Assembly: GCA_965248355.1 (NCBI GenBank)
Contig: OZ252098.1
Coordinates: 3,520,001 to 3,584,000, forward strand
Length of the DNA stretch: 64,000 nucleotides
Source of the DNA: Candidatus Latescibacterota bacterium
GTDB taxonomy: Bacteria > Latescibacterota > UBA2968 > UBA8231
Reading direction: 5' to 3'
Shown: positions 7,801 through 46,452 of the stretch, one piece after another
Layout of the letters: every line of letters starts with the position of its first letter
Position numbering within the stretch: position 1 is the stretch's first letter
Notes under the pieces: model-generated
The model's database searches: none
Told to the model about the DNA's origin: nothing
Seen by the model: only the letters and a program-made list of their open reading frames with translations
Made by a program: the position numbers and the translations under genes

Positions 7801-8802
7801 GCCCGGCCCCTGGCGCCGCGCCTCCAGCCTTGACGACAAGAGGTCGCGGGTCTCGCGGATGTCGCGCTCCGCCGGCATGAAGACGAGCACGTCGCCGCGG
7901 GTGGACTCGGCCATCAGCCTTTCGCAGGCGGACACGGCCCCGTCGGTGTACGAAAACCCGCCTTCCTCCCCCTCCAGCAGCTCCTCCAGCGGCCAGTGCC
8001 GGACCTCGACCGGGTAGACGCGGCCCGACACCTGGATGACGGGGGCGCCGTCGAAGGCCCGGGAGAAGCTCTCGGTGTCGATGGTGGCCGAGGTGACGAT
8101 GATCCGGAGATCGGGACGGCGGGCCCTCAGCGTGCGCAGGTAGCCGAGGAGGAAGTCGATGTTCAGGGAGCGCTCGTGGGCCTCGTCGATGATCAGGGTG
8201 TCGTACTCGAGCAGATCGCGGTCGGAGCGGACCTCGGCCAGCAGCAGGCCGTCGGTGACGAACTTCACCAGCGTCTCCGGCGAGGTGCGGTCCTGGAAGC
8301 GGATCCTGGCGCCCACCTGCCGCCCCCACTCGACGCCGAGCTCCTCGGCCAGCCGCCGCGACAGGGAGGTGGCGGCGACCCGCCGGGGCTGGGTGACGGC
8401 GATGCGGGCGTCGCGCCCGCGGCCGGCGAGCAGGCAGATCTTGGGGATCTGGGTCGTCTTGCCCGAGCCGGTGTCCCCGGCGACGACGACGACGGGATGC
8501 TCCCGGACGGCGGCCTGGATCTCGTCCGCGCGCCGGCTGATCGGCAGCGGCTCCGGGAAGTCGATGGTCATCGACTCCAGGGCCCGCAGGCGCAGGGCGC
8601 GGGTCCTCCGCGAGCGCTCCGCGCGCTCGGCGATGTGGTCGAGATCGCGGACCAGGCGCCGGGGCGGCCGGCCGCGGGACAGGGCTTCCCGCAGACGCCG
8701 GAGACGGCGGCCCAGGCGCACGCGGTCGGACATCATGCAGCCCTCGAGGCTGTTCTCGAGATCGGCCAGTCTCTCGTCGGGTGGGGGGGCGGCGGAGCTC
8801 AT
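4807..8802 (-). CDS. hrpA: ATP-dependent RNA helicase HrpA
   Basis: GDTGSGKTTQIPK, TQPRR, DEAHERSLNIDF, SAT, QRKGRCGR; C-terminal EEFRVSVFAQELGT. Confidence 0.97.
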   Translation of the reverse strand: MSSAAPPPDERLADLENSLEGCMMSDRVRLGRRLRRLREALSRGRPPRRLVRDLDHIAERAERSRRTRALRLRALESMTIDFPEPLPISRRADEIQAAVREHPVVVVAGDTGSGKTTQIPKICLLAGRGRDARIAVTQPRRVAATSLSRRLAEELGVEWGRQVGARIRFQDRTSPETLVKFVTDGLLLAEVRSDRDLLEYDTLIIDEAHERSLNIDFLLGYLRTLRARRPDLRIIVTSATIDTESFSRAFDGAPVIQVSGRVYPVEVRHWPLEELLEGEEGGFSYTDGAVSACERLMAESTRGDVLVFMPAERDIRETRDLLSSRLEARRQGPGGVEILPLFSRLSAAEQHRVFGAHTGRRIVIATNIAETSLTIPGIRYVVDTGLARISRYNPRTQTQRLPIEEISRSSAEQRKGRCGRVEDGICVRLYGEEDFQARPEHTQPEIQRANLAEVILRMLDLELGTVESFPFLEPPSEAAIRGGYQLLEELGAIDRDRRLTPLGRDMARIPISPAVSRMVLQARAEGSLAEVLVIAAGISVQDPRERPAEEEEKADLAHRRFVDPRSDFLTLLNIWRACHERLEQGTQSQLRRFCRQHYLSYLRMREWRDIHAQVRANLRELGGFPLDEDGPGGEAAYEAVHRCLLTGLFSHVARREDRNLYAAPRGRRAMLFPGSGLFQRSESRQRRVETPAAEGPGAEAAAVGAEWVVAAEMVETNRLYARTCAAIRPEWILDLGEHLCRSSCRDPHWSRSDGRVLAHETVRLHGLVVAERRVGYGRIAPREARDIFLREGLIAGEIDSVAHGFLDHNRRLHQRLEVWQSRRRQGPQVDLDDALHDFYAGLLPEGTASVHDLNRVIRERGGRDDFLFAGEEQLLGATGTPVDTEAFPEAVDVVGEQLALSYRHEPGTEADGITLHLPYRLVDAVRPEVLDWLVPGLLEERVTALLRSLPKALRKRFVPVPSTARRIAADLKPAHGDGAFLSALEHYIEEHWRLQVRRADWNLAAVPEHLRLRVEVEGDGRATLAAGRDLAALSGQLDRPAGAGAVQLDAWREAAGRWEREDVVDFDFVDLPERLEVTRVSGVPVFAFPGLVLEQNAVHVRLFPDREEARAATPAGFQRLCELALKDETVWLRRELMDLRALAGGRLQAYEHLARYLFQEGGVFPLTRERFEARVARSRERLEGLSQRFLDLMREILDLRSGLIAHPRPYPGLKEDLERLLPADFLAGLEFDRLPHLVRYLKAVRVRADRFQADAGRDGAKAAQVAPFGQAWKKVREGLDGASPERRRRAEALRWLVEEFRVSVFAQELGTAERVSAARLERAIEDVAKAD

Positions 8803-8867
8803 GCGACTGGAAGGTAGGGGCCGGCGATGTACCTGTGAATGGCGATGCCTTCGTACCTTAGCGGGAC

Positions 8868-10109
8868 ATGCATGAGTTCATCGATACCCTGACGGGATGG
8901 CTCGCCGGGCACCCGCTGGGGAGACAGGTGGTGTACACCGCCGGGCTCTTCCTGGTGGCGTGGGGCGCCCATCTGCTGGCTCGCAAGGTCCTCCTGCGCT
9001 CCGTGACCCACCTGATCCGGGCCAGCAGCACGAAGATCGACGACGTGCTCCTGGACCGGGGGGTGCTGAACCGCGCCGCCCTGCTGCTCCCAGTGCTCGT
9101 CTTCTACTACGGCGCCGGCGTCCTGCCCGGCTCGAGGGAGACGGTCCTGCAGGTGGTCAACGCCGCCCTGCTCATGGTGGTGCTGCTCGTGGCGGGAGCC
9201 CTGATCGACGCCCTGCAGGAGGCGATGGCCGACTACGACGCGCGCACCGAGGTGCCGATCAAGAGCTACGCCCAGATCCTCAAGATCGCCCTCTACGTCA
9301 TCGGCGGCCTGATGACGGTGGCGGTCCTGACGGGGCGGTCCCCGTGGGTGCTGCTCTCAGGCGTCGGCGCCCTGATGGCCGTGATCATCCTCGTCTTCCG
9401 CGACACCCTCCTGTCGCTCGTGGCCAGCTTCACCATCGCCTCCAACCGGCTGGTCAAGGTGGGCGACTGGATCGAGGTCCCCACCTTCGGAGCCGACGGC
9501 GACGTCATCGACATGGCCCTGCACACGGTGAAGGTGCAGAACTGGGACAAGACGATCACCACGATCCCGACCCACAAGCTGGTGGACGTCTCCTTCAAGA
9601 ACTGGCGCGGCATGCAGGACAGCGGCGGGCGCCGGATCAAGCGCGCCATCCACATCGACATGCACTCGATCCGGTTCTGCGATCCGGAGATGCTGCAGCG
9701 ATTCGAACGCTTCGAGCTGATCCGCGGCTACCTGAGCGCCCGCCGGAAGGAGGTGGAGCAGTTCAACGCCGAATCGCGGATGGACGCTTCGGAGCTGGTC
9801 AATGGCCGGCACCTGACCAACGTGGGCACCTTCCGGGCCTACGTGGCCGCCTATCTGCGCAGCCACCCGCGCATCCGCCAGGACATGACCTTCCTGATTC
9901 GGCAGTTGGCGCCGACCGGGCAGGGGCTGCCCCTGGAGATCTACGTGTTCACCAACACCACGGTGTGGGCCGAGTACGAGGACATCCAGTCCGACGTCTT
10001 CGACCACCTGCTGGCGGTGGTGCCCCGCTTCGGGCTGCGCGTCTTTCAGGAGCCGGCGGGGTCGGATTTCGCGGCCCTTGCACACATCGACGCCGCGGGC
10101 ATAAGGTAG
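8868..10109 (+). CDS. Small-conductance mechanosensitive channel (YbdG/MscM type)
   Basis: N-terminal TM helices; GDWIEVP..GADGDVIDMALHTVKVQNWDKTITTIP; NWRGMQDSGGRRIKR. Confidence 0.92.
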   Translation: MHEFIDTLTGWLAGHPLGRQVVYTAGLFLVAWGAHLLARKVLLRSVTHLIRASSTKIDDVLLDRGVLNRAALLLPVLVFYYGAGVLPGSRETVLQVVNAALLMVVLLVAGALIDALQEAMADYDARTEVPIKSYAQILKIALYVIGGLMTVAVLTGRSPWVLLSGVGALMAVIILVFRDTLLSLVASFTIASNRLVKVGDWIEVPTFGADGDVIDMALHTVKVQNWDKTITTIPTHKLVDVSFKNWRGMQDSGGRRIKRAIHIDMHSIRFCDPEMLQRFERFELIRGYLSARRKEVEQFNAESRMDASELVNGRHLTNVGTFRAYVAAYLRSHPRIRQDMTFLIRQLAPTGQGLPLEIYVFTNTTVWAEYEDIQSDVFDHLLAVVPRFGLRVFQEPAGSDFAALAHIDAAGIR

Positions 10110-10163
10110 GGCCCGAGGAACGGACGTACGGCCCAAGGAGTCTGAGCGGGGTGAGATGAGAGC

Positions 10164-10736
10164 ATGAGAAGGAGCCGCCACAAGACCTTCGAGGTGTACG
10201 CCGTCCCAGGGCGGCTGTTGGCCCTGGCCATCCTCGGTCTGGGGCTCCTCCTCCCGGCGGAGGCGCCCGCGGCGTCGAAGGCCCAGTTCACCCTGCCGGC
10301 CATCGACGGCGAGCAGTTCTCCCTGCGGGAAGCGCTGAAGGAGGGGCCGGTGGTCCTCGACTTCTGGGCCACGTGGTGCAAGCCCTGCATCAAGGGGCTG
10401 CCCAAGCTGCAGGAGATCGCCCAGGAGTACGGCGAGCGCGGAGTGGGGGTGTACACCGTGAACGTCGACGGACCCCGCAATCAGCCCAAGGTGAGGCCCT
10501 TCCTGAAGCGCCACCGGCTGGAGCTGCCGGTCCTGCTCGACCACTCGAGGCAGGTGATGAAGCAGTTCCAGATACCCGCGGTTCCGGCGACCATGATCAT
10601 CTCCACCGAGGGCGAGGTGGTGTACAAGCACTTCGGGTACAAGCCGGGAGACGAGATCCGCCTGCGCGCCAGGCTGAAGGAGTTGCTGCAAGAGGCTGAA
10701 ACCGACTCCACGAAAGGGGGAGCCGATGAGGGTTAG
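10164..10736 (+). CDS. TlpA/ResA-like periplasmic thiol-disulfide oxidoreductase
   Basis: Signal peptide, LDFWATWCKPC active site, cis-Pro AVP loop, HFGYKPGDE. Confidence 0.93.
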   Translation: MRRSRHKTFEVYAVPGRLLALAILGLGLLLPAEAPAASKAQFTLPAIDGEQFSLREALKEGPVVLDFWATWCKPCIKGLPKLQEIAQEYGERGVGVYTVNVDGPRNQPKVRPFLKRHRLELPVLLDHSRQVMKQFQIPAVPATMIISTEGEVVYKHFGYKPGDEIRLRARLKELLQEAETDSTKGGADEG

Positions 10737-11616
10737 AGGTATTCTCCGGAAGGGGCGGGTCGCCTGCGCGGCCATCGCCCTCACCGCTTCACACATGGGC
10801 GGAGCGAGCGAGGCCGAGGCCCAGGCGACGGCCGGCGACCCGGCCCCCGCCTTCGAGCTCGAGACCGTGGACGGACAGCTCGTGTCGCTTGGTGACTTTC
10901 TCGGCGAGAAGGTCGTCTACATCAACTTCATCGGGAACACCTGACCGTTCTGCATCGCGGAGGCCGCGAGTTCCGAGGCAATATGGCAGAACTACGGGAG
11001 CGATGGCTTCACCGCCCTCGGCATCGATCTGTGGGACGCGAGGGCCTCCAACGTCAAGTCCATCTGGGTCGACGACGGCCTGGCGTCCTACCCGATGCTG
11101 GTCAACGGCTCGGGGGTGGCCCGGGACTACGGCGTGGTCCAGGACTACTACTTCGTCATCGATCACGAGGGGATCGTCCGTTACCGGTCGCCCGACGCAA
11201 GGCTTGGGAACCGCTTCAATGACGGGGAGATCCGCGATGCCATCGACGATGCCCTGGCCGATCTCGCCGCCGCCCTGGAGGTCGTCGAAGTGGAGGAGGA
11301 GCCGGAGGTGATCACGGCGGTTTCGTCCGCCCCCCAGGTGCCCGACGGGTTCGAGCTGGGCGCCTATCCGAATCCCTTCAACGCGGAAACGACCCTCTCC
11401 TTCACGGTGAGCACGGCGGGCCCGCTGGTCCTGACCCTGTCCGATCTCCAGGGGCGCATCCTGCGCGACTGGTCCGGACACTACGGGACCGGGAGCCACT
11501 CCCTGACCTGGGACGGACGCGGCGAGAGCGGTGAACCCGTCGCCTCCGGGGTCTACGTCGCCACCGCGCGCCAGGGGGCCGCGGCCATCACCCGAAAGGT
11601 CACCCTGCTGAAGTAG
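10726..11616 (+). CDS. Putative selenoprotein: exported thioredoxin-fold redoxin (UPFC, Sec73) fused to a FlgD-Ig/T9SS type A-like C-terminal domain, 296 aa
   Basis: ORFs 10726-10944 and 11095-11616 are in the same frame. Reading through TGA (10942-10944) gives KVVYINFIGNT-U-PFCIAEAASSEAIWQNYGSDGFTALGIDLWD...YPMLVNG..VARDYGV..YYFVIDHEGIVRY with no other stop. Tail YPNPFN...WDGRGESGEPVASGVY...RKVTLLK. Confidence 0.85.
10955..10969 (+). promoter_or_regulatory. Candidate bacterial SECIS hairpin
   Basis: TCGCGG-AGG-CCGCGA perfect 6-bp stem starting 10 nt after the UGA; G-containing apical loop. Confidence 0.6.
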
Positions 11617-11634
11617 GGAGGAGCGGTCCCGCTC

Positions 11635-13185
11635 CTACAGCACCTTGCTGATCAGGCGCAACTCGAGGCCCTCGAAGCCCAACACCTCGTAGCAGCTGCC
11701 CCCGGTGCAGGCCAGCCCCGTCCTCCGCCGGCCCGCAAAGGCGTCCAGCGTGTGGGCCTCGCGGAACCTCCAGCTGGCGCCGAGAGCCCCCCAGTACGTC
11801 GCCCCCGACTCCGAGGCCCCGGCCTCCAGGGGGTCGTTGGACCTCTGCAGCTGCAGCGACCACGTCCACGCCGGATAGCGGCTGACCTCCACGATGGCCA
11901 GCAGGTTCTCGTGGGGGAACTCACTCCGGCCGAAGCGCCGGTCCACGTCCTGCAACTGCAGGTCGGCGCTGACGGCGTGGCGCCCGCCGGCGGACCACTC
12001 CCAGCGCGTGCCGGCGGTCAGGCGCCGCTCGTTCTCGAGGATGCGGTTGCGCGTATAGTCGAGGAACAGCTGTCCGTGGAGGACCTCGCCCACCGGGGAA
12101 TCCAATTGCAGGAAGTACTCCCGCAGCGACTTCTCCTCGCCGGGGCGCGAACCCCGGCGGGTGGCCAGGTTCCAGGCGGCGATCAGCCCGACCTGGCGGG
12201 GCAGGGCCCAGGTGAGCTCGGCCTGGACCCCGGTCTCGTCGTCGGCCAGCAGGGCGTGGGTCTCCCGGTTGAGCAGGAAGGCCTCGTGCTCCCGGATCAG
12301 GGTGGGCGGGTTGTTGATGCTCGCAAAGGCGAAGTCGTGGTAGTCCTTCCGTTCCAGGCTCAGCCCCCAGTCCCCGCCCGTCAGGGTGGCGGCCAGGTAG
12401 AGGGCCCGCGGGCGCTTGCTGTCCAGGGAGAACCAGCGGCCCGGGGCGGGATCGAGCTGGGCGTACTCGCCGTAGAGATCGCCGTACCAGCCACCCAGTC
12501 CGAGCCCTTCCAGGAGCGACCCGAAACGGAACTCCCCATGGGTGGTGGCGGCCAGCTCCTCGCGCCCGTCGAAGGAGAACTCCATCAGCGCCGCCCCGAT
12601 CTCGATGTCGCGGCTCAGGCGGGCGCCGACGGCCCCGCCGGAAACGCGGCCCCGGCGCCGTTCCAGACCCTTCAGCCCGGGGGCCAGCTCGCTGTTCACG
12701 GGGGTGCCGCGCAGCCACAGCACGTCCACCTTCCCCCGCCGGGCGCGCACCTCCACGCCATCAAGGTCGCGCACGATCTGGTAGCGGCGGCGGGCGACGC
12801 GGTCCTCGGTGACGACGCCCGGAAGCTCGAAGGCGTGCAGGAGGAGTCCGCGGCCCACCAGGGTGTAGAAGTGTCCGGCCGTCGCCTCGAGGCCGCCGTG
12901 CCGGTAGGAGAGGGATCGCTGCGCGAGGTGAGCGTAGTCCCGGCCGTCTCCGCTGGAGCGGAAGGCCTCGCTTCGGGCGCTGGCCAGGAATCCCGAGGAC
13001 TCGAAACCGAGGTTCACCTGCTGGTACACGGCCCGCAGATCGGCCGGCTCCGCGTCGGGAAGGTTGCCGAGCTGGTATTCGTGGTGGGCCGTGAGCCGCA
13101 CCTGGCCGTGGAGGGGGCCGGCCGCCAGCAGGGCGGCCGCCAACAGGGCGAGGAGCCCAGGGCTGGCGCGACAAGGAAGGGTCAT
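11635..13185 (-). CDS. DUF6029-like outer-membrane beta-barrel protein with C-terminal CxxxxC
   Basis: Signal peptide; GHFYTLVGRGLLL; INNPPTLIREH; alternating beta-strand pattern; C-terminal GRRRTGLACTGGSCYEVLGFEGLEL. Confidence 0.75.
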   Translation of the reverse strand: MTLPCRASPGLLALLAAALLAAGPLHGQVRLTAHHEYQLGNLPDAEPADLRAVYQQVNLGFESSGFLASARSEAFRSSGDGRDYAHLAQRSLSYRHGGLEATAGHFYTLVGRGLLLHAFELPGVVTEDRVARRRYQIVRDLDGVEVRARRGKVDVLWLRGTPVNSELAPGLKGLERRRGRVSGGAVGARLSRDIEIGAALMEFSFDGREELAATTHGEFRFGSLLEGLGLGGWYGDLYGEYAQLDPAPGRWFSLDSKRPRALYLAATLTGGDWGLSLERKDYHDFAFASINNPPTLIREHEAFLLNRETHALLADDETGVQAELTWALPRQVGLIAAWNLATRRGSRPGEEKSLREYFLQLDSPVGEVLHGQLFLDYTRNRILENERRLTAGTRWEWSAGGRHAVSADLQLQDVDRRFGRSEFPHENLLAIVEVSRYPAWTWSLQLQRSNDPLEAGASESGATYWGALGASWRFREAHTLDAFAGRRRTGLACTGGSCYEVLGFEGLELRLISKVL

Positions 13186-13267
13186 CGATCTCTCATCCGC
13201 GGACTCCGTCCCTCCCAGGGTACGCCTGCCAGCCGCCCGGACTCAAATCGCCCACCCCGGGTTCTCC

Positions 13268-14974
13268 TCAGGTCCGCGTCCCTTCCATGAGAATCCGCGC
13301 CACCTCCGGCCTGGTGAACTCCATGGGCGGGACCTGTCCCTTGGCCAGCATGTCGCGCACCTGTGTGCCGCTCAGATTCACGCGTTCCTCCGCGCCGTGC
13401 GGGCAGGTCTTCATGGAGGCCATGCCCTCGCAGCGCTTGCAGAAGAAGGAATGATCGAAGAACAGCGGGGTGATGCCCAGGTCGGCCGGGGGCAGGCTCC
13501 GCAGCAGGTCCTGCGCCTCATAGGTTCCGTAGTAGGACCCGACACCGGCGTGATCCCGTCCGACGATGAAGTGCGTGCAGCCGTAGTTCTTGCGGACGAG
13601 GGCGTGGAACACGGCCTCGCGCGGTCCCGCGTAGCGCATCGCCGCAGGCAGGACCGACAGATGCACACGGTCGGACGGGTAGTAGCCCTCCAGGAGGGCC
13701 CCATAGCAGCGCATCCGGATGTCGGCGGGGATGTCGTCCGGCTTGGTCTCTCCCACAAGGGGGTGCAACAGCAGCCCGTCGACGATCTCCAGGGCCGCCT
13801 TCTGGATGTACTCATGGGCGCGGTGGACGGGATTGCGGGTCTGAAACCCGACGATCGTCCGCCAGCCTCGCTCGGCGAAAGCGGCGCGCGTCTCGGCCGG
13901 GTCCTGCCGGTGGGACAGCAGAGCCGCCTCGAGGTCCTCGCGCTCGATGGCGGTGACCGCTCCGCCGATCAGCGCGTCATGCTGCCGGTAGACGGAGGCC
14001 ACGCCGGGGTGCGCTTCCTCCTGGGTGCCGAAGACGCTCTGCGCCTCGACCCTCTTGTCGTACGGATAGACCTCGTCAACCGTGATGACGCCGACGAGGC
14101 GGCCGGCGGGGTCGTGCAGGGCGGCTTCGTCGCCCCTTTCGAGTCCCGAGGCCGCTTCCCAGGGCGCGGACAAGGTGATCGGCAGGCTCCACAAGGTGCC
14201 GTTCGCGAGCCGCATCTCGCGCACCGTGCGCTCATAGTCGCCCCGGCTCATGAAGCCGGCCAGCGGGCTCATCGCCCCGACGGCGATGAGGTCGAGGTCA
14301 GCGGACTCGCGGGGAGAAAGCCCGAGGCGGGGCAGGGCCGAGGCCCGGGCGCGAATCTCCTGCGCCTCCTCCGGCGAGGCCAGTCGGTGGATGAGAGCGC
14401 CCCCGTGGGGCGCGATGGCCGTCATGGTGGCCGTGCCCTGTGGCGCGAATCCCCTCTCCTTCAGCGCGGACAGGACCTTGCCGAGGCTCTCCTCGATGGT
14501 CTCCTCCTCCGTGTTGACCAGGACCTCAGGGCTTGGCGGCGCCTCATACGGGTCCGAGACACCGGTGAAATTGGGAATCTCGCCCTTGAGCGCCTTCTCA
14601 TACAGGCCCTTCACGTCGCGCCGCACCAGCTCATCGAGCGAGGCGTGGACATGAACCTCGATGAAGCGGCCGATCTCCCGCCGCACCTCGTCGCGCACTT
14701 CGCGGTACGGCGAGATGGCCGAGACGATGCTGACCACGCCGTTGCGCGTGAGGAGGTTGCTGACGAATCCGATGCGCCGGATGTTGGTGTCGCGATCCTC
14801 CTTGCTGAAGCCGAGTCCCTTGCTGAGGTTCGTGCGGACCACGTCGCCGTCGAGCAGCTCGCAGTTGATACCCCGCTCCCCGAGGACCGCGAGCAACCGC
14901 TCCGCGATAGTGCTCTTGCCCGCGCCCGAAAGGCCGGTAAACCAGACCGTCACTCCCTGCGGATCTGTCGTCAC
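13268..14974 (-). CDS. cysC-sat: Bifunctional adenylyl-sulfate kinase (N-terminal CysC) / sulfate adenylyltransferase (C-terminal Sat)
   Basis: [32 protein letters not shown] (CysC); [36 protein letters not shown] (Sat). Confidence 0.95.
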
Positions 14975-15004
14975 CTTGTTTCCTCCCTTGTCCGGGTTCG
15001 TGTT

Positions 15005-15772
15005 CTATGGTGTGGCGATGCCGGCGCCGTTTCCGGGCGGGATCGCAGTCCTCGAGATGTGGATGCCGCACTCCACCTTGTCCCCGAAATCGGACCAGCG
15101 GCCGGCTCTGCGGTCCTCGCCGGGCCGGACGGCGCGGGTGCAGTGGGTGCAGCCGATGCTGGGATACCCGCGGTCGTGCAGGTCGTTGTAGGGCACGTCG
15201 TTCTCGCGAATGCAATCCCAGATGTCCTCCTCCGTCCAAGTCGCCAGGGGGTTGATCTTGACGAGGTTGAACTTGATGTCCCATGCGACGATGGCGACAT
15301 CCTTGCGCCTGGTGCCCTGATCACGGCGCAAGCCGGCCATCCAGGCGTGCTGCCCGGCGAGGGCCTCCTCGCTGGGCCCGACCTTGCGGATCTCGCAGCA
15401 GAGATCGGGGTCGACCTTCCAGAGTTCCGGGCCGTGCCGTGCCGCCTGTCGCTCGACGGAAACGTCCGCCTTGAAGGCCATGGGACGGATTCCGTAGCGG
15501 CGCGCGGCCCGGTCCTTGAGGGCGTGTGTCTCCGGGAAGAGAAAGCCCGTATCGACGTAGAAGACGGAGACGGCGGGATTGATCTCCATGGCCATGTCGA
15601 GCAGGACCATGCCGGAGACACCGCCAAAGCTGCAGGCGAGCGTGATGTCCGGGAAGAAGGTCTCCAGGGCCCAGCGCACGATCTCCCGCGGGTGGGCGTC
15701 CTCCAGCTCGGCTCTGACCTGTCCAAGCCTCTCCTCGGTCCATTCCGTCCTCAGCGCTCCAATGTCCGCCAT
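15005..15772 (-). CDS. cysH: Adenylyl-sulfate (APS) reductase, CysH family, [4Fe-4S] type
   Basis: DTGFLFPET, LCCEIRKV, GYPSIGCTHCT, RAGRW, ECGIH. The CC + CxxC pattern indicates the Fe-S APS-reductase type. RBS GGAGGG upstream of ATG 15772. Confidence 0.92.
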   Translation of the reverse strand: MADIGALRTEWTEERLGQVRAELEDAHPREIVRWALETFFPDITLACSFGGVSGMVLLDMAMEINPAVSVFYVDTGFLFPETHALKDRAARRYGIRPMAFKADVSVERQAARHGPELWKVDPDLCCEIRKVGPSEEALAGQHAWMAGLRRDQGTRRKDVAIVAWDIKFNLVKINPLATWTEEDIWDCIRENDVPYNDLHDRGYPSIGCTHCTRAVRPGEDRRAGRWSDFGDKVECGIHISRTAIPPGNGAGIATP

Positions 15773-15803
15773 GTCTTCCGCTCTCCCTCCGTATCTGGCT
15801 GGC

Positions 15804-15843
15804 AAGAAAAAACCCGCCCCCCTTGGCTGTCGGGGGGCGGGTT
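15804..15843 (-). terminator. Intrinsic terminator (attenuator) upstream of cysH
   Basis: Minus strand AACCCGCCCCCC-gacagccaa-GGGGGGCGGGTT-TTTTCTT: 12-bp stem plus U tract, ending about 30 nt before the cysH ATG. Confidence 0.85.
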
Positions 15844-15900
15844 CGTGCGCTTCTTCCTGGTTGATCAGGCGTGCCGCGCCGCTGTGTCAGTGAGGCCGGC

Positions 15901-28136: not shown

Positions 28137-28412
28137 ATGGCCAGGGTTCAACTCGTGATCCCCGATGAGGACCGTGATCACTTCGTCCATCAGGCGCGGA
28201 GCGAGGGCATGACCCTGAGCGCCTGGCTCAGGACCGCTGCACGCCAGCGCCTCGAAGAGCAGCAGAGATCCCACCCCTTCGAATCCCCGGATGATGTCGA
28301 GGGGTTCTTCCGCGCCTGCGATGCATTGGAAGGCCCCGGGGGGGAACCGGATTGGGAGCAGCACCTGGCCGTCATCGACGAATCGCGAAGACGGGACGCA
28401 TCCGGCACGTGA
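28137..28412 (+). CDS. Antitoxin (RHH/CopG-like, VapB)
   Basis: 91 aa, MARVQLVIPDEDR...ARSEGMTLSAWLRTAA; stop overlaps toxin start (GTGA). Confidence 0.8.
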   Translation: MARVQLVIPDEDRDHFVHQARSEGMTLSAWLRTAARQRLEEQQRSHPFESPDDVEGFFRACDALEGPGGEPDWEQHLAVIDESRRRDASGT

Positions 28413-28801
28413 TCTTCGTGGATACGAACGTCTTCATGTACGCCGTGGGCCGTCCCCATCCCCTCCGCGATCCGGCGCGGGAGTTCTTCAGCGAGTGCAT
28501 CCGCTCCCGCACCCCTCTGTGTACCTCGGCTGAGGTGCTGCAGGAACTCGCCCACGCCTACCTGCCCGTTGCACGGAAGCAGACCCTCGACGCGGCTCTG
28601 TCGTTGATCGCCAAGTCCCGGGTGGAGGTGTGGCCCCTGGAACAGGAGGACGTCGTCCTGGCGCGCCAACTCCACGAGCAGCATCCCACCCTTGGCGCCC
28701 GGGACCTCTGCCACCTGGCCAGTTGCCGCCGCCGCGGCATCAGGGACGTCCGGACCTTCGATCAGGCCCTCGGGGTCGTCCTCGGAGGGATGGCACGGTA
28801 A
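28409..28801 (+). CDS. vapC: PIN-domain VapC toxin
   Basis: MIFVDTNVFMY, EVLQEL, ARDLCHLA, TFDQAL acidic PIN residues. Confidence 0.9.
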   Translation: MIFVDTNVFMYAVGRPHPLRDPAREFFSECIRSRTPLCTSAEVLQELAHAYLPVARKQTLDAALSLIAKSRVEVWPLEQEDVVLARQLHEQHPTLGARDLCHLASCRRRGIRDVRTFDQALGVVLGGMAR

Positions 28802-29060: not shown

Positions 29061-29136
29061 TGGTGGAGCTGAGGGGAATCGAACCCCTGACCTCCTGAAT
29101 GCCATTCAGGCGCTCTCCCAACTGAGCTACAGCCCC
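29061..29136 (-). tRNA. tRNA-Ala(GGC)
   Basis: GGGGCTGTAGCTCAGTTGGGAGAGCGCCTGAATGGCATTCAGGAGGTCAGGGGTTCGATTCCCCTCAGCTCCACCA; 76 nt, G3:U70, encoded CCA. Confidence 0.98.
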
Positions 29137-39755: not shown

Positions 39756-41440
39756 CAGTCCAGGACCACCACGTTGCCGAAGGCCCGGCTGCCGGCCCCG
39801 GTCTCGACTCGAAAGAAGTAGACCCCGTTGGCCACCGGGTCGCCGTCGTCGTCGCGGCCGTCCCACGACTCCCGGTGGTGACGCCCGCCGGGGCGGGGTT
39901 CGCCGTCGACGAGGGTGCGCACCTTGCGGCTGGAGAAATCGAAGATGTCGACGCTCACCCGGTCCTCCTCGGCCAGGCTGTAGACCACCGTGCACCTCTG
40001 CCCGCGGGACGGGGCGAAGGGGTTCGGGGCGGCGTAGGTCCTGGCCCCTCCGGCGTCCACCAGACCGCCCTCTCCGATCACCTCCCCGGAGTCCACGGAG
40101 CGCGTGCGCACCGGGAAGCTGAGTATCGTCCAGGTCCGGCCGCCGTCGAGGGAGCGGCCCAGACCGTTGTCGGCGCCGGCCCAGAGGGCGACCCTCCCGT
40201 CGGGGAGGGCGAAGCGCTCGACGCCGACGAAAGGGGCCAGCAGAAGCTCCTGGTTGAGGAAGTCCTCCACCGGCACCTCCACCCAGCTCTCCCCGTGGTC
40301 GGGGCTCAGGAGCAGGCCCTCGTCGGTACCCGCCCAGACCGAGTCGGCGGCGAAGGCGAAGTCCCAGGCGAAGGTGGGCCCGGAGAAGGCCCAGGTGGCG
40401 CCGTCGTCCTCGGTGCGGTTGATGGCCCTGAGCTGTCCGGGGCCCTGGGTGACGTCGGCACCCACCCAGACGACGGAGCTCCCGTCGGGCCGGATCTCGC
40501 GCTCCACCGCCAGGCCCCAGTTGCCGGAGAGGTTGTCCGGGAGGGGTTCGCCGGAGGCGTCCAGCCGGGGCCGGTGGACCGTCCAGGTGCGGCCGAAGTC
40601 GAAGCTGGAGGCCACGCCGTAGGCGGTGCCGATCCACACGGTGTCGCCGTAGGCCGCGACGGAGAAGGTGCGGTGGAGCCGCGCCAGGGCGCCGACGCTG
40701 TCGGCTTCGGCCTGGGCCCTGGCGACCGCGTCCTCGGGAGCACCGGCCTCTCTCAGGCTGTCGAGGCGAACCCGGAAGCGGGTGTTGTTGTAGACGATGC
40801 TGTCCTGCCCGCCCGGGAGCACCCGCTCCCAGGTGCGGCCGAAGTCGGTGGAACGCACCGAGGCGCCCGCAAAGAAGGTGGCCCAGACGGTGTCGCCCTC
40901 GACGGCCAGGCCGAAGCAGGCGTTCTGGATCGGTGTCCGCGGGCCCCGCTCGAATCCGGGGCGCAGGGTGTCGAAGAGGGCCTCGTTCGAGATCCGCTGC
41001 CACCTGGCTCCGCCGTCCGTGGACCAGGACAGGCCGCTGCCAGTCTGCTGGCGCACCCCGCCGGCCAGCACGGAATCGAAGAGGGTGGCCGCCCACACCG
41101 TGTCTCCGTGCGCGGCCAGGGCGCTCACGGGGCCCCGGCCGAGGCCGTGCTCCTCCGTGAAGGTGACCCAGTGCCCGGCCTCGAGCCCGTCCCCCCGGGC
41201 CGGGTCCAGGCGTGCCAGGCCGCTCTCCGTGGCCACCCACAGGTAGCTCCCGCTCCAGACGACGTCGGTGATGCTGTTGCCGAGCATGCCCGTCGACGGG
41301 GGTGGCTCGGCCTCCTGAAGAAAGCCTGCGGGAACGCCGCCGTGGCCGGGCGTCGAGGCCAAGGCCAGGGCGCACAGGCACGGGAGCGTGGTGGATCGGA
41401 GAAGGCGGACGGGTGAAGGCCCCGGGCGGGCGTCAGGCAT
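39755..41440 (-). CDS. Secreted Asp-box/BNR beta-propeller protein with FlgD-Ig/T9SS-like tail (PorZ-like architecture)
   Basis: Repeated STDGGARW, STDFGRTW, SFDFGRTW, SPDHGESW, SLDGGRTW; YAAPNPF...WDGRDDDGDPVANGVYF. Confidence 0.8.
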   Translation of the reverse strand: MPDARPGPSPVRLLRSTTLPCLCALALASTPGHGGVPAGFLQEAEPPPSTGMLGNSITDVVWSGSYLWVATESGLARLDPARGDGLEAGHWVTFTEEHGLGRGPVSALAAHGDTVWAATLFDSVLAGGVRQQTGSGLSWSTDGGARWQRISNEALFDTLRPGFERGPRTPIQNACFGLAVEGDTVWATFFAGASVRSTDFGRTWERVLPGGQDSIVYNNTRFRVRLDSLREAGAPEDAVARAQAEADSVGALARLHRTFSVAAYGDTVWIGTAYGVASSFDFGRTWTVHRPRLDASGEPLPDNLSGNWGLAVEREIRPDGSSVVWVGADVTQGPGQLRAINRTEDDGATWAFSGPTFAWDFAFAADSVWAGTDEGLLLSPDHGESWVEVPVEDFLNQELLLAPFVGVERFALPDGRVALWAGADNGLGRSLDGGRTWTILSFPVRTRSVDSGEVIGEGGLVDAGGARTYAAPNPFAPSRGQRCTVVYSLAEEDRVSVDIFDFSSRKVRTLVDGEPRPGGRHHRESWDGRDDDGDPVANGVYFFRVETGAGSRAFGNVVVLD

Positions 41441-42263
41441 AGGTGGCGGAGCGTTCGTTCAGCGCGTCCACGGCCTCGCAGCCGATGCCGCAGTCGCCGA
41501 TCCGCGGCCCCTTCGGTTCGCCGTGGCTGTCGGAACCTCCGGACATGAGCAGGCCGTAGCGCCTGGCGATGTCCCGGTAGTGCTCGATCTGGGGCGGCTG
41601 GTGGGAGGGGTGGTAGACCTCGACGCCATCGAGGCCGGTATCGACCAGCTCGGCGATCACGGTCTCCGGCACCGCCAGGCCGGGATGGGCGAGAACGATG
41701 ACGCCGCCGAGCTCGTGAACGAGGCCGATCACCTCGGCGGCCGGGCTGCGCGGCTTCGGCACGTCTGCGGGGCGGCGGTCACCGATGAAGCGCTGGAAGG
41801 CCTCCTCCTTCGTCGGCACCGCCCCGCTGGCGACAATCGCCGCGGCGATGTGGGGGCGTCCCAGCGGCCCGCCGGCGGCCCTCAGCAGCACCTCCTCGAA
41901 GGTGACCTCCACCCCGAGCTGGTTGAGACGCCGGACGATGGCCTCCCCGCGGTCCAGGCGGCGCTGGTGGAGGAGCTCGACGTAGGAGCCCAGGCGTTCG
42001 TCGCGGTAGTCGATGAAATAGGCCAGCAGGTGCAGCTCGCGGTCGTTGACGTGGGCGCTGAGCTCCGTTCCCGGAACGATCTGCACCCCGAGTTCCCGGC
42101 CGGCCGCAGCGGCCTCCGCGATCCCCTCGACGGTGTCGTGGTCGGTCAGACTCAGCACCCGGACCCCGGAGGCGGCCGCCTCCTCCACCACTTTGCGGGG
42201 TGAGCGCAGCCCATCGGAGCAGGTCGAATGGGTGTGCAGGTCGGCGAGATTGTACTGGACCAC
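41433..42263 (-). CDS. PHP-domain phosphoesterase (YciV/TrpH-like)
   Basis: DLHTHSTCSDG, LTDHDT, GRPHIA, LAHPG, GGSDSHG. Confidence 0.92.
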   Translation of the reverse strand: MVQYNLADLHTHSTCSDGLRSPRKVVEEAAASGVRVLSLTDHDTVEGIAEAAAAGRELGVQIVPGTELSAHVNDRELHLLAYFIDYRDERLGSYVELLHQRRLDRGEAIVRRLNQLGVEVTFEEVLLRAAGGPLGRPHIAAAIVASGAVPTKEEAFQRFIGDRRPADVPKPRSPAAEVIGLVHELGGVIVLAHPGLAVPETVIAELVDTGLDGVEVYHPSHQPPQIEHYRDIARRYGLLMSGGSDSHGEPKGPRIGDCGIGCEAVDALNERSATYA

Positions 42264-46179: not shown

Positions 46180-46452
46180 TCAGAAGGGGTAGACTTCGTC
46201 CAGGCGGCGGAGGGTGCGGCTGCGGGCCTGGCTCTCGGCAGACTTGCCGGCCACGCCTGACTCCGGGACCCGCGCCCGGTCCACGGGCATCTGGATCACC
46301 GGGCGCCGCAGCCAGGCCAGCAGGACGAGACCGGCGTCGAGGGGCGCCGGCGGCCGCAGCTCCAGGCGGAAGACGAGGACGGCGCCCAGGAACCGCCCGA
46401 GCACCGAGCGGCGGGCGGGAGCGCTCCGGAGCTCCGCGGCGGCGGTGCTCAC
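46180..46452 (-). CDS. Hypothetical protein, 90 aa
   Basis: GTG overlaps purC stop (GTGA); MSTAAAELRS...RTLRRLDEVYPF fills the gap exactly. Confidence 0.55.
   Translation of the reverse strand: MSTAAAELRSAPARRSVLGRFLGAVLVFRLELRPPAPLDAGLVLLAWLRRPVIQMPVDRARVPESGVAGKSAESQARSRTLRRLDEVYPF

Follow-up and report, generated by a model that had tools for sequence, protein, structure and literature searches.

A probable exported selenoprotein of the TlpA/ResA type with a type IX-like C-terminal tail, encoded across an in-frame TGA in a Latescibacterota contig

Introduction

Selenoproteins of the UxxC Prx-like and TlpA-like kinds, in which U stands for selenocysteine (Sec), have long been known. The excerpts of the 2026 review PMC13188914 used here list among the predicted families a 'Prx-like thiol:disulfide oxidoreductase (PF00578, UxxC)', a 'Redoxin family protein (PF08534, UxxC)', a 'Thiol-disulfide isomerase-like (cd02966, UxxC)' and a 'UGC-containing TlpA family'. 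As outer-membrane selenoproteins the same excerpts name a TonB-dependent receptor and an MtrB/PioB-type barrel. In the consulted portion of supplementary file 3 of PMC2398784, the 2008 Global Ocean Sampling (GOS) study, the entry '#Prx-like 1' holds JCVI_READ_1309069, which has F-F-S-P-G-U-P-V-C followed by I-W-Q-E-Y, and whose C-terminal domain contains Y-P-N-P-F-N and ends in L-Y-L-K. There are 22 occurrences of the motif P-N-P-F-N in the file; of the first 11, all but the first stand in the 'Prx-like 2' block. A role of this tail as a secretion signal is not discussed in the portions of the two papers used here, and a literature search combining selenoprotein with type IX secretion found nothing relevant. 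Here we analyse a gene with these features in a 64,000-nucleotide stretch of contig OZ252098.1 from a Candidatus Latescibacterota bacterium (the window, to which all coordinates refer unless stated otherwise). We conclude that 10726-11616 is one selenoprotein gene, encoding an exported TlpA/ResA-like oxidoreductase with a U-P-F-C centre and a tail of the type IX secretion system (T9SS) type. For this joint reading we estimate a probability of about 0.82.

Results

One reading frame across the TGA

The gene and the elements that define it are:

10726..11616, plus strand: proposed selenoprotein gene of 296 codons, with signal peptide, UxxC redoxin, acidic linker and T9SS-type C-terminal domain
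10942..10944, plus strand: in-frame TGA, candidate Sec residue U73, which opens U-P-F-C (10942-10953)
10712..10722, plus strand: purine-rich stretch resembling a Shine-Dalgarno sequence, 3 nt before the ATG at 10726; recognised in the sequence, putative in function

The ATG at 10726, the TGA at 10942-10944 and the TAG at 11614-11616 lie in one frame. An earlier reading made from the letters alone (the sequence-only reading) had described two open reading frame (ORF) fragments in this frame, parted solely by the TGA, and this is what the sequence contains. Its 296-amino acid read-through product was reproduced by translation, with I-N-F-I-G-N-T-U-P-F-C around the TGA. The frame beyond the TGA, previously credited with 50 open codons, in fact runs for 223 codons without a stop, and the G+C content at third codon positions (GC3) is of the coding type upstream and downstream of the TGA, at 0.89-0.90. 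A single Pfam AhpC-TSA domain (residues 37-153, E 3e-16) and a single Redoxin domain both bridge the TGA, scoring 59.9 and 56 against gathering thresholds of 26 and 26.6. The two annotated fragments are therefore halves of one fold. Sequence matches in the PDB are of the TlpA/ResA/CcmG type (best 3or5 at 1e-7), and in these alignments U pairs with the first Cys of the CxxC motif. They agree with the earlier placing of the TGA at that position, for which the adjacent TlpA, with F-W-A-T-W-C-K-P-C, had served as comparison.

In the window, five in-frame TGAs are flanked on either side by open frames of coding-like character, and a UxxC context is found at 10942 only. This sole context, the domain that bridges the TGA and the PDB alignments that pair it with the first Cys of CxxC together put the observation beyond chance. 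The genetic code of the window is standard, since TGA is the terminator of 26 of its 38 Pfam-supported ORFs. Public annotation splits the gene, as had been anticipated for gene callers: the NCBI records for such pieces carry two separate names, 'hypothetical protein' of 72 amino acids (Gemmatimonadaceae bacterium) and 'T9SS type A sorting domain-containing protein'.

Three of the other four TGAs are ordinary gene boundaries. The fourth, at 46180-46182 on the minus strand, lies between genes for SAICAR synthase and an FGGY kinase and has coding-like composition on both sides. Its upstream part is of low complexity and lacks a C/U redox motif, and a small gene seems to begin past the stop.

Redoxin domain and fold

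10831..11193, plus strand: TlpA/ResA-like thioredoxin-fold (Redoxin/AhpC-TSA) domain, residues 36-156, from Pfam, PDB, AlphaFold2 (AF2) and Foldseek

The AF2 model, built from a 70-row alignment, has a mean predicted local distance difference test score (pLDDT) of 88.3, rising above 94 over the redoxin domain. It has a thioredoxin fold in which a strand at residues 63-69 is followed by U73 and a helix at 74-78. Beyond the redoxin domain come a long helix (166-188), a disordered acidic linker and an all-beta domain (211-294). Foldseek ranks ResA, TlpA and CcmG first, with TMt values of 0.82-0.86 and a root mean square deviation (rmsd) of about 2 Å for ResA; 1-Cys and Bcp-type peroxiredoxins follow closely. 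The description as a UxxC thioredoxin-fold redoxin thus holds on the Pfam domains, on the position of U73 just before the active-site helix and on the ResA-like structural matches.

Among the NCBIfam models none is reached by the redoxin part of the protein, the best being ResA with 37 bits against a cut-off of 170. In a pairwise alignment with the neighbouring TlpA (25% identity), the cis-Pro segment V-P-A-T comes to stand opposite Q-D-Y-Y. The protein is therefore placed in a distinct subfamily within the TlpA/Prx-like clan.

Two other assignments were rejected. The protein is not a peroxiredoxin proper: the PxxxTxxC/U motif is absent, as T abuts U and no P stands four residues before it, the centre is of the CxxC type instead, and the NCBIfam peroxiredoxin models give weak scores. 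The motif around U has what we take to be a local resemblance to the iodothyronine deiodinase-like selenoproteins (PF00837). There was no PF00837 hit at E <= 0.01, NF038285 (deiodinase_rel) gave 20.3 bits against a cut-off of 250, and no deiodinase is present among the Foldseek matches listed.

Conservation of the stop and its cysteine counterpart

With the read-through product as the query, a word-indexed search across 5.8 billion proteins gave 97 hits. The best 46 of these (E <= 7e-21, 33-100% identity) are all 162-231 amino acids long and span no more than 74% of the query. All 20 C-terminal relatives that were aligned begin past residue 77, at differing predicted starts (residues 79, 95, 98, 113 and later), and are 34-86% identical. 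When the 72-residue N-terminal piece was used as the query, 12 clusters of 49-72 amino acids were found at 78-96% identity, and 12 out of 12 terminate at ...G-N-T. Several N- and C-terminal fragments report equal longest-contig sizes (2808, 23235 and 1011933). These sizes alone suggest that the paired fragments lie on the same contigs.

HMMER, run exhaustively against 1.84 billion representatives, added many single-ORF relatives of 245-290 amino acids. In the 115 aligned relatives listed (at most 400 amino acids; count of printed rows), the U column holds Cys in 79, is absent together with its surroundings in 33, which start downstream of it, and fits neither case in the remaining 3. The usual context of the Cys forms is [LIV]-x-F-F-G-[YN]-x-C-P-x-C, with free variation of the residues beyond the second Cys. 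Homologs with either Cys or a conserved TGA at codon 73 had been named as something to look for; Cys occurs in these 79 relatives, and the N-terminal fragments keep a stop there.

A family tree was calculated from 89 rows, 60 of them Cys forms and 29 Sec or N-truncated forms. Left out were multi-domain proteins, proteins of more than 300 amino acids, fragments of very short length and some 20 additional Cys rows. The Sec/truncated label changes 5 times on this tree, compared to 24.5 times after shuffling, and none of 500 shuffles gave a number as low; with only the columns past residue 105 there were 6 changes. Because the label clusters far beyond the shuffles, the truncated forms represent a coherent lineage and not accidents at contig ends.

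At the DNA level, a scan of species-representative genomes found at least 79 loci, mostly matching the common sorting-domain pattern. Three full-length relatives were present among the matches listed:

L001, Gemmatimonadota: TGA in the U column; 41% amino acid identity in the alignment, 40% in the best tblastn segment; ...F-G-F-N-U-P-F-C-I-A-E-A-A...
L002, Latescibacterota: TGA in the U column; 35% amino acid identity in the best tblastn segment
L003, Marinimicrobia: TGT (Cys) in the U column; 33% amino acid identity; ...G-H-G-C-P-F-C...

The hairpin downstream of the TGA

10955..10969, plus strand: candidate core of a bacterial selenocysteine insertion sequence (SECIS), TCGCGG-AGG-CCGCGA, starting 10 nt past the TGA within the coding sequence

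The 6-bp hairpin that had been reported 10 nt past the TGA is present. In the excerpts of PMC13188914 used here, the bSECIS model is defined by a loop of 3-9 nt with a G within its initial two nucleotides, a stem of at least 4 bp, a UGA-to-loop spacing of 16-37 nt and an energy of at most -7.5 kcal/mol. With 6 bp, an AGG loop, a spacing of 16 nt and -8.0 kcal/mol, the window hairpin falls within the model at its lower limits. The hairpin of L001 is nucleotide-identical and fits as well; in L003, the Cys form, no hairpin fits.

Comparison of the window with L001 gives further information on this region. The gene has 56% GC in L001 versus 67% in the window, and gene-wide 53% of the nucleotides are shared. 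The 10-codon stretch with the highest conservation in the whole gene begins at the TGA and is identical at 28 of 30 nt. At positions where the residues are identical, the third base is also identical in 8 of 9 codons near the UGA versus 45 of 108 elsewhere (Fisher p = 0.007).

Export signals and C-terminal tail

10726..10821, plus strand: predicted signal peptide of the Sec (general secretory) type, residues 1-32, with basic N-region, hydrophobic core and A-E-A before Q33; by inspection
11365..11601, plus strand: T9SS type A C-terminal sorting domain (FlgD-Ig-like beta-sandwich), residues 214-292 of 296

Both export elements of the sequence-only reading were recovered. The N-terminus has the appearance of a secretory signal peptide on inspection, and in the AF2 model residues 1-30 have a pLDDT of about 50. 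The tail is all-beta with a pLDDT of about 95. It scores 29.5 bits with NCBIfam TIGR04183 (cut-off 23) and 27.9 with Pfam FlgD_ig (threshold 27). In the 70-row family alignment PF18962 was detected in 59 members, FlgD_ig in 36 and CHU_C in 15. AhpC-TSA and Redoxin were detected in 62; that they are lacking in 8 agrees with the count of 8 N-truncated rows. At 39758-41458 on the minus strand the window encodes another protein with a FlgD_ig/T9SS-type tail, which also carries BNR/Asp-box repeats; sorting tails thus recur in this genome.

Discussion

Observations that weigh against the proposed selenoprotein

A number of observations weigh against the interpretation of 10726-11616 as a gene for an exported selenoprotein. 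Genes for selA, selB and selD are not found among the 52 ORFs of the window, sel genes are not found among the 48 ORFs in the flanks of the relatives, and a tRNA-Sec was not found in the 64-kb window or in L001, L002, L003 or L017. The close relatives are known from proteins alone, which display the position of the stop and do not identify the codon as TGA. The cis-Pro of TlpA-type proteins may be lacking, since its segment comes to stand opposite Q-D-Y-Y. Concerning export, the matches of the tail to TIGR04183 and FlgD_ig only just exceed the cut-offs, and no T9SS components were recognised among the window ORFs.

The hairpin is minimal and its spacing sits at the 16-nt limit. In the GC-rich window 155 of 1170 TGA triplets (13%) pass the same bSECIS criteria, and the published constraints are thus satisfied, but barely. 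Fold z-scores of -0.5, -0.6 and 0.0 indicate that the hairpin is no more stable than shuffled sequences, and a consensus fold of the three sequences contains no compensatory pair change. Rfam at gathering thresholds reports only a tRNA-Ala; in E-value mode over 10880-11080 it gives two chance-level hits and no family for the hairpin. By itself the hairpin is supportive only and does not go beyond chance. A stronger argument is that L001 conserves it exactly.

Of the expectation that relatives keep both TGA and hairpin, L001 bears out both parts. L002 keeps the TGA, but its hairpin lies 2 nt nearer to it and fails the bSECIS spacing. L002 (10154-10162 of that locus) also has a TAG two codons before the conserved TGA, and it is flanked by IS1595-type and DDE transposase genes, without the TlpA and DUF6029 genes that accompany the window gene. 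Probably L002 is a decaying copy, or else the TAG is an assembly error.

Alternative explanations

The alternative that survives best accepts the selenoprotein but keeps it in the periplasm. In this explanation the C-terminal Ig-like domain would bind or anchor the protein, to the DUF6029 barrel for instance, and is not a T9SS export signal in this phylum. It draws on the marginal tail scores, on the absence of recognised T9SS components from the window, and on a literature search that gave no paper joining type IX secretion with Gemmatimonadota and a C-terminal domain. The tight linkage to a periplasmic TlpA and an outer-membrane barrel would fit a periplasmic complex equally well. On the other side, the TIGR04183 cut-off is passed, PF18962 and CHU_C recur through the family in 59 and 15 of 70 members, the domain occupies the very end of the protein, where T9SS needs it, and the window encodes a second protein with such a C-terminal domain. 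We consider a purely periplasmic location unlikely, and prefer export by a T9SS-like route.

The remaining alternatives dispute that UGA codes for Sec. First, the codon could be read through by a near-cognate Trp, Cys or Arg tRNA or by a suppressor tRNA. UGA-C is a leaky stop context, and a C follows the stop in the window, in L001 and in L002; the sel genes that Sec decoding needs were also not found in the 64 kb. However, Cys in the U column of homologs makes this a classic Sec/Cys pair, and the SECIS-like hairpin is kept at the nucleotide level. TGA is also the main stop codon of the window, and leakage would yield very little product, yet the gene is kept across lineages. Read-through without Sec therefore appears very improbable. 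A second possibility, that the locus makes a secreted peptide of 72 amino acids and a separate tail protein from an internal start, is what gene callers and NCBI annotate, and ATG, GTG or TTG codons are indeed available after the TGA. Such a split would sever strand 1 of one thioredoxin fold from the active-site helix, and would leave a downstream piece with a secretion tail but no signal peptide. The predicted starts, moreover, differ among relatives, and the 79 Cys-containing relatives are single ORFs. We find two separate products scarcely tenable. Finally, a nonsense pseudogene, in which a CxxC redoxin was killed by a TGC/TGT-to-TGA change and its downstream part decays, is the default reading of an in-frame stop and draws on the damaged look of L002 (extra TAG, transposases around, no partner genes), but is close to refuted by the same stop position in all 12 fragment clusters and in the 41%-identical L001 of another lineage, by an open downstream frame with 34-86% identity in all 20 aligned relatives, by a GC3 of 0.89-0.90 on both sides and by the coherent clades of the truncated forms.

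Proposed mechanism

In view of the above, decoding of the UGA as Sec remains the preferred explanation, and a possible route from gene to function can be outlined. UGA codon 73 would be decoded by SelB and tRNA-Sec, directed by the stem-loop 10 nt downstream. The signal peptide should then lead to export of the unfolded protein across the inner membrane, after which it could fold in the periplasm. The type A sorting domain may hand it over to a type IX-like pathway, for release or attachment to the cell surface. There the U-P-F-C centre could cycle between the selenol/thiol and selenenylsulfide states, thereby reducing or exchanging disulfides and possibly acting on other oxidised substrates. 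Selenium would offer a more reactive nucleophile, and one that recovers more easily from over-oxidation in an oxidising compartment. The gene likely shares its transcript with that of a conventional periplasmic TlpA-like reductase, and there is genetic linkage to a DUF6029 barrel.

The finding suggests that these poorly studied bacteria carry out selenium-dependent redox chemistry in their envelope or at the cell surface, and it places selenocysteine among cargo of the T9SS type. About 46 related clusters share the truncation, and a family model could therefore repair many records from Gemmatimonadota-like and related FCB-group bacteria.

Gene neighbourhood and a possible outer-membrane relay

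The two partner genes in the window are:

10164..10736, plus strand: TlpA/ResA-like thiol:disulfide oxidoreductase (W-C-K-P-C), sharing 11 nt with the beginning of the selenoprotein gene
11635..13185, minus strand: DUF6029 outer-membrane beta-barrel gene (Pfam DUF6029), convergent with the selenoprotein gene

The product of 10164-10736 matches Pfam AhpC-TSA (3e-24) and Redoxin (3e-21), and the NCBIfam ResA subfamily at 2e-27, which is below the cut-off. The TlpA-like neighbours in the window and L001 are 56% identical, above the identity between the two selenoproteins. No sigma-70 promoter or intrinsic-terminator patterns were found over 9900-13400.

The gene order in the three lineages is:

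Window: TlpA-like (plus), selenoprotein (plus), DUF6029 (minus)
L001: DUF6029 (minus, 7817-9436 of that locus), TlpA-like (plus), selenoprotein (plus)
L003: Cys form, TlpA-like, DUF6029 (plus, 11229-12845 of that locus), on one strand with overlapping ends

TlpA-like protein, redoxin with C-terminal domain and DUF6029 are thus linked in three lineages with the gene order shuffled. Seven DUF6029 hits share reported contig sizes with selenoprotein fragments, and from the sizes alone linkage may be assumed there too. In P0345 a signal peptide and a TlpA-like domain occur naturally fused to DUF6029. The TlpA-like part shares 44% identity with the TlpA neighbour in the window (E 5e-32), and the likeness of P0345 to the selenoprotein is confined to a stretch of 43 residues, 16 of them identical.

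AF2 models DUF6029 as a large barrel of about 26 strand elements (pLDDT 84, predicted TM-score (pTM) 0.79). Its matches are the usher pores FimD and PapC first, with a TM-score of about 0.5 and high rmsd, and porins next. As modelled, DUF6029 is a generic large outer-membrane barrel. HHpred likened the family to Wzi-type barrels in the part of PMC9603273 consulted. A 39-row DUF6029 alignment contains two invariant cysteines, C493 and C498, in a short hairpin near the C-terminus.

These features allow a further, rather speculative proposal, namely that the three linked genes form a thiol-disulfide relay across the outer membrane, a counterpart of DsbD at the inner membrane. The periplasmic TlpA-like reductase, which in P0345 is fused to the barrel, would reduce the invariant C-x4-C hairpin of DUF6029. 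The barrel could pass reducing equivalents on to the seleno-redoxin at the surface, or else be its export and docking pore. Sec would be the surface-exposed nucleophile, chosen for its resistance to irreversible oxidation outside the cell. Support for the relay so far comes from the synteny in three lineages, the P0345 fusion, the invariant Cys pair and the barrel model; we regard it as improbable. Apart from this, DUF6029, a family without assigned function, gains a context as part of a redox module with a TlpA-like partner.

Just past the DUF6029 gene, at 13268-15886 on the minus strand, the window encodes a fused adenylylsulfate (APS) kinase/ATP sulfurylase and a phosphoadenylylsulfate (PAPS) reductase of sulfate assimilation. 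Enzymes of that kind also act on selenate. Elsewhere in the window, a PIN-domain gene (28295-28798, plus strand) adjoins a tRNA-Ala (GGC) gene at 29061-29136 on the minus strand, the sole tRNA of the window.

Comparison with known systems

The closest sequence and fold matches of the window protein are TlpA, ResA and CcmG (DsbE), which are likewise exported and carry their CxxC at the start of helix 1. The window protein differs by Sec in place of the first Cys, by G-N-T-U-P-F-C where these proteins have W-C-x-P-C, and by the added C-terminal sorting domain. Display of a TlpA-like fold outside the cytoplasmic membrane is also found for Etrx1/Etrx2 of Streptococcus pneumoniae (4hqz, Foldseek rank 39), which reduce a surface methionine sulfoxide reductase. 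Those proteins are Gram-positive, lipid-anchored and Cys-based, and have no such C-terminal domain. With the iodothyronine deiodinase-like selenoproteins (PF00837) the window protein has in common a thioredoxin/Prx-like fold and an active-site Sec.

The architecture of signal peptide, functional domain and C-terminal TIGR04183/PF18962 beta-sandwich is that of the T9SS type A cargo of Bacteroidota. Here the cargo would be a selenoenzyme, and the host belongs to a Gemmatimonadota-like lineage in which a T9SS is putative.

Among selenoproteins, the Prx-like 1 and Redoxin families, as described in the excerpts used, share the AhpC-TSA/Redoxin fold, a UxxC that opens with Sec, and a wealth of Cys homologs. 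The active site of the window protein is F-x-G-x-x-U-P-x-C and not W-U/W-C, its redoxin part scores below all NCBIfam cut-offs and it is annotated at NCBI as two fragments. JCVI_READ_1309069 of the Prx-like 1 entry, in the portion of the file consulted, has the same architecture when judged by eye. The GOS 'Prx-like 2' proteins in that portion (distant SelP-N-like, F-T-U-G-T-C) have UxxC, a signal-peptide-like start and, in several reads, the same C-terminal domain; by their description they belong to another redoxin family with another motif. Since several of these reads carry the domain, Sec redoxins with such a tail are not unique. T9SS-type-tailed selenoproteins may be common in marine FCB-group bacteria without having been remarked on before.

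The novelty of the locus had been overrated in the sequence-only reading, because the class is long known and the 2008 list, in the part consulted, holds a member with the same tail. As a UxxC redoxin the window protein is a fairly ordinary representative of that known class, to which it adds a new subfamily member. What is new is the explicit link to T9SS and the conserved module that it forms with a TlpA-like gene and a DUF6029 barrel.

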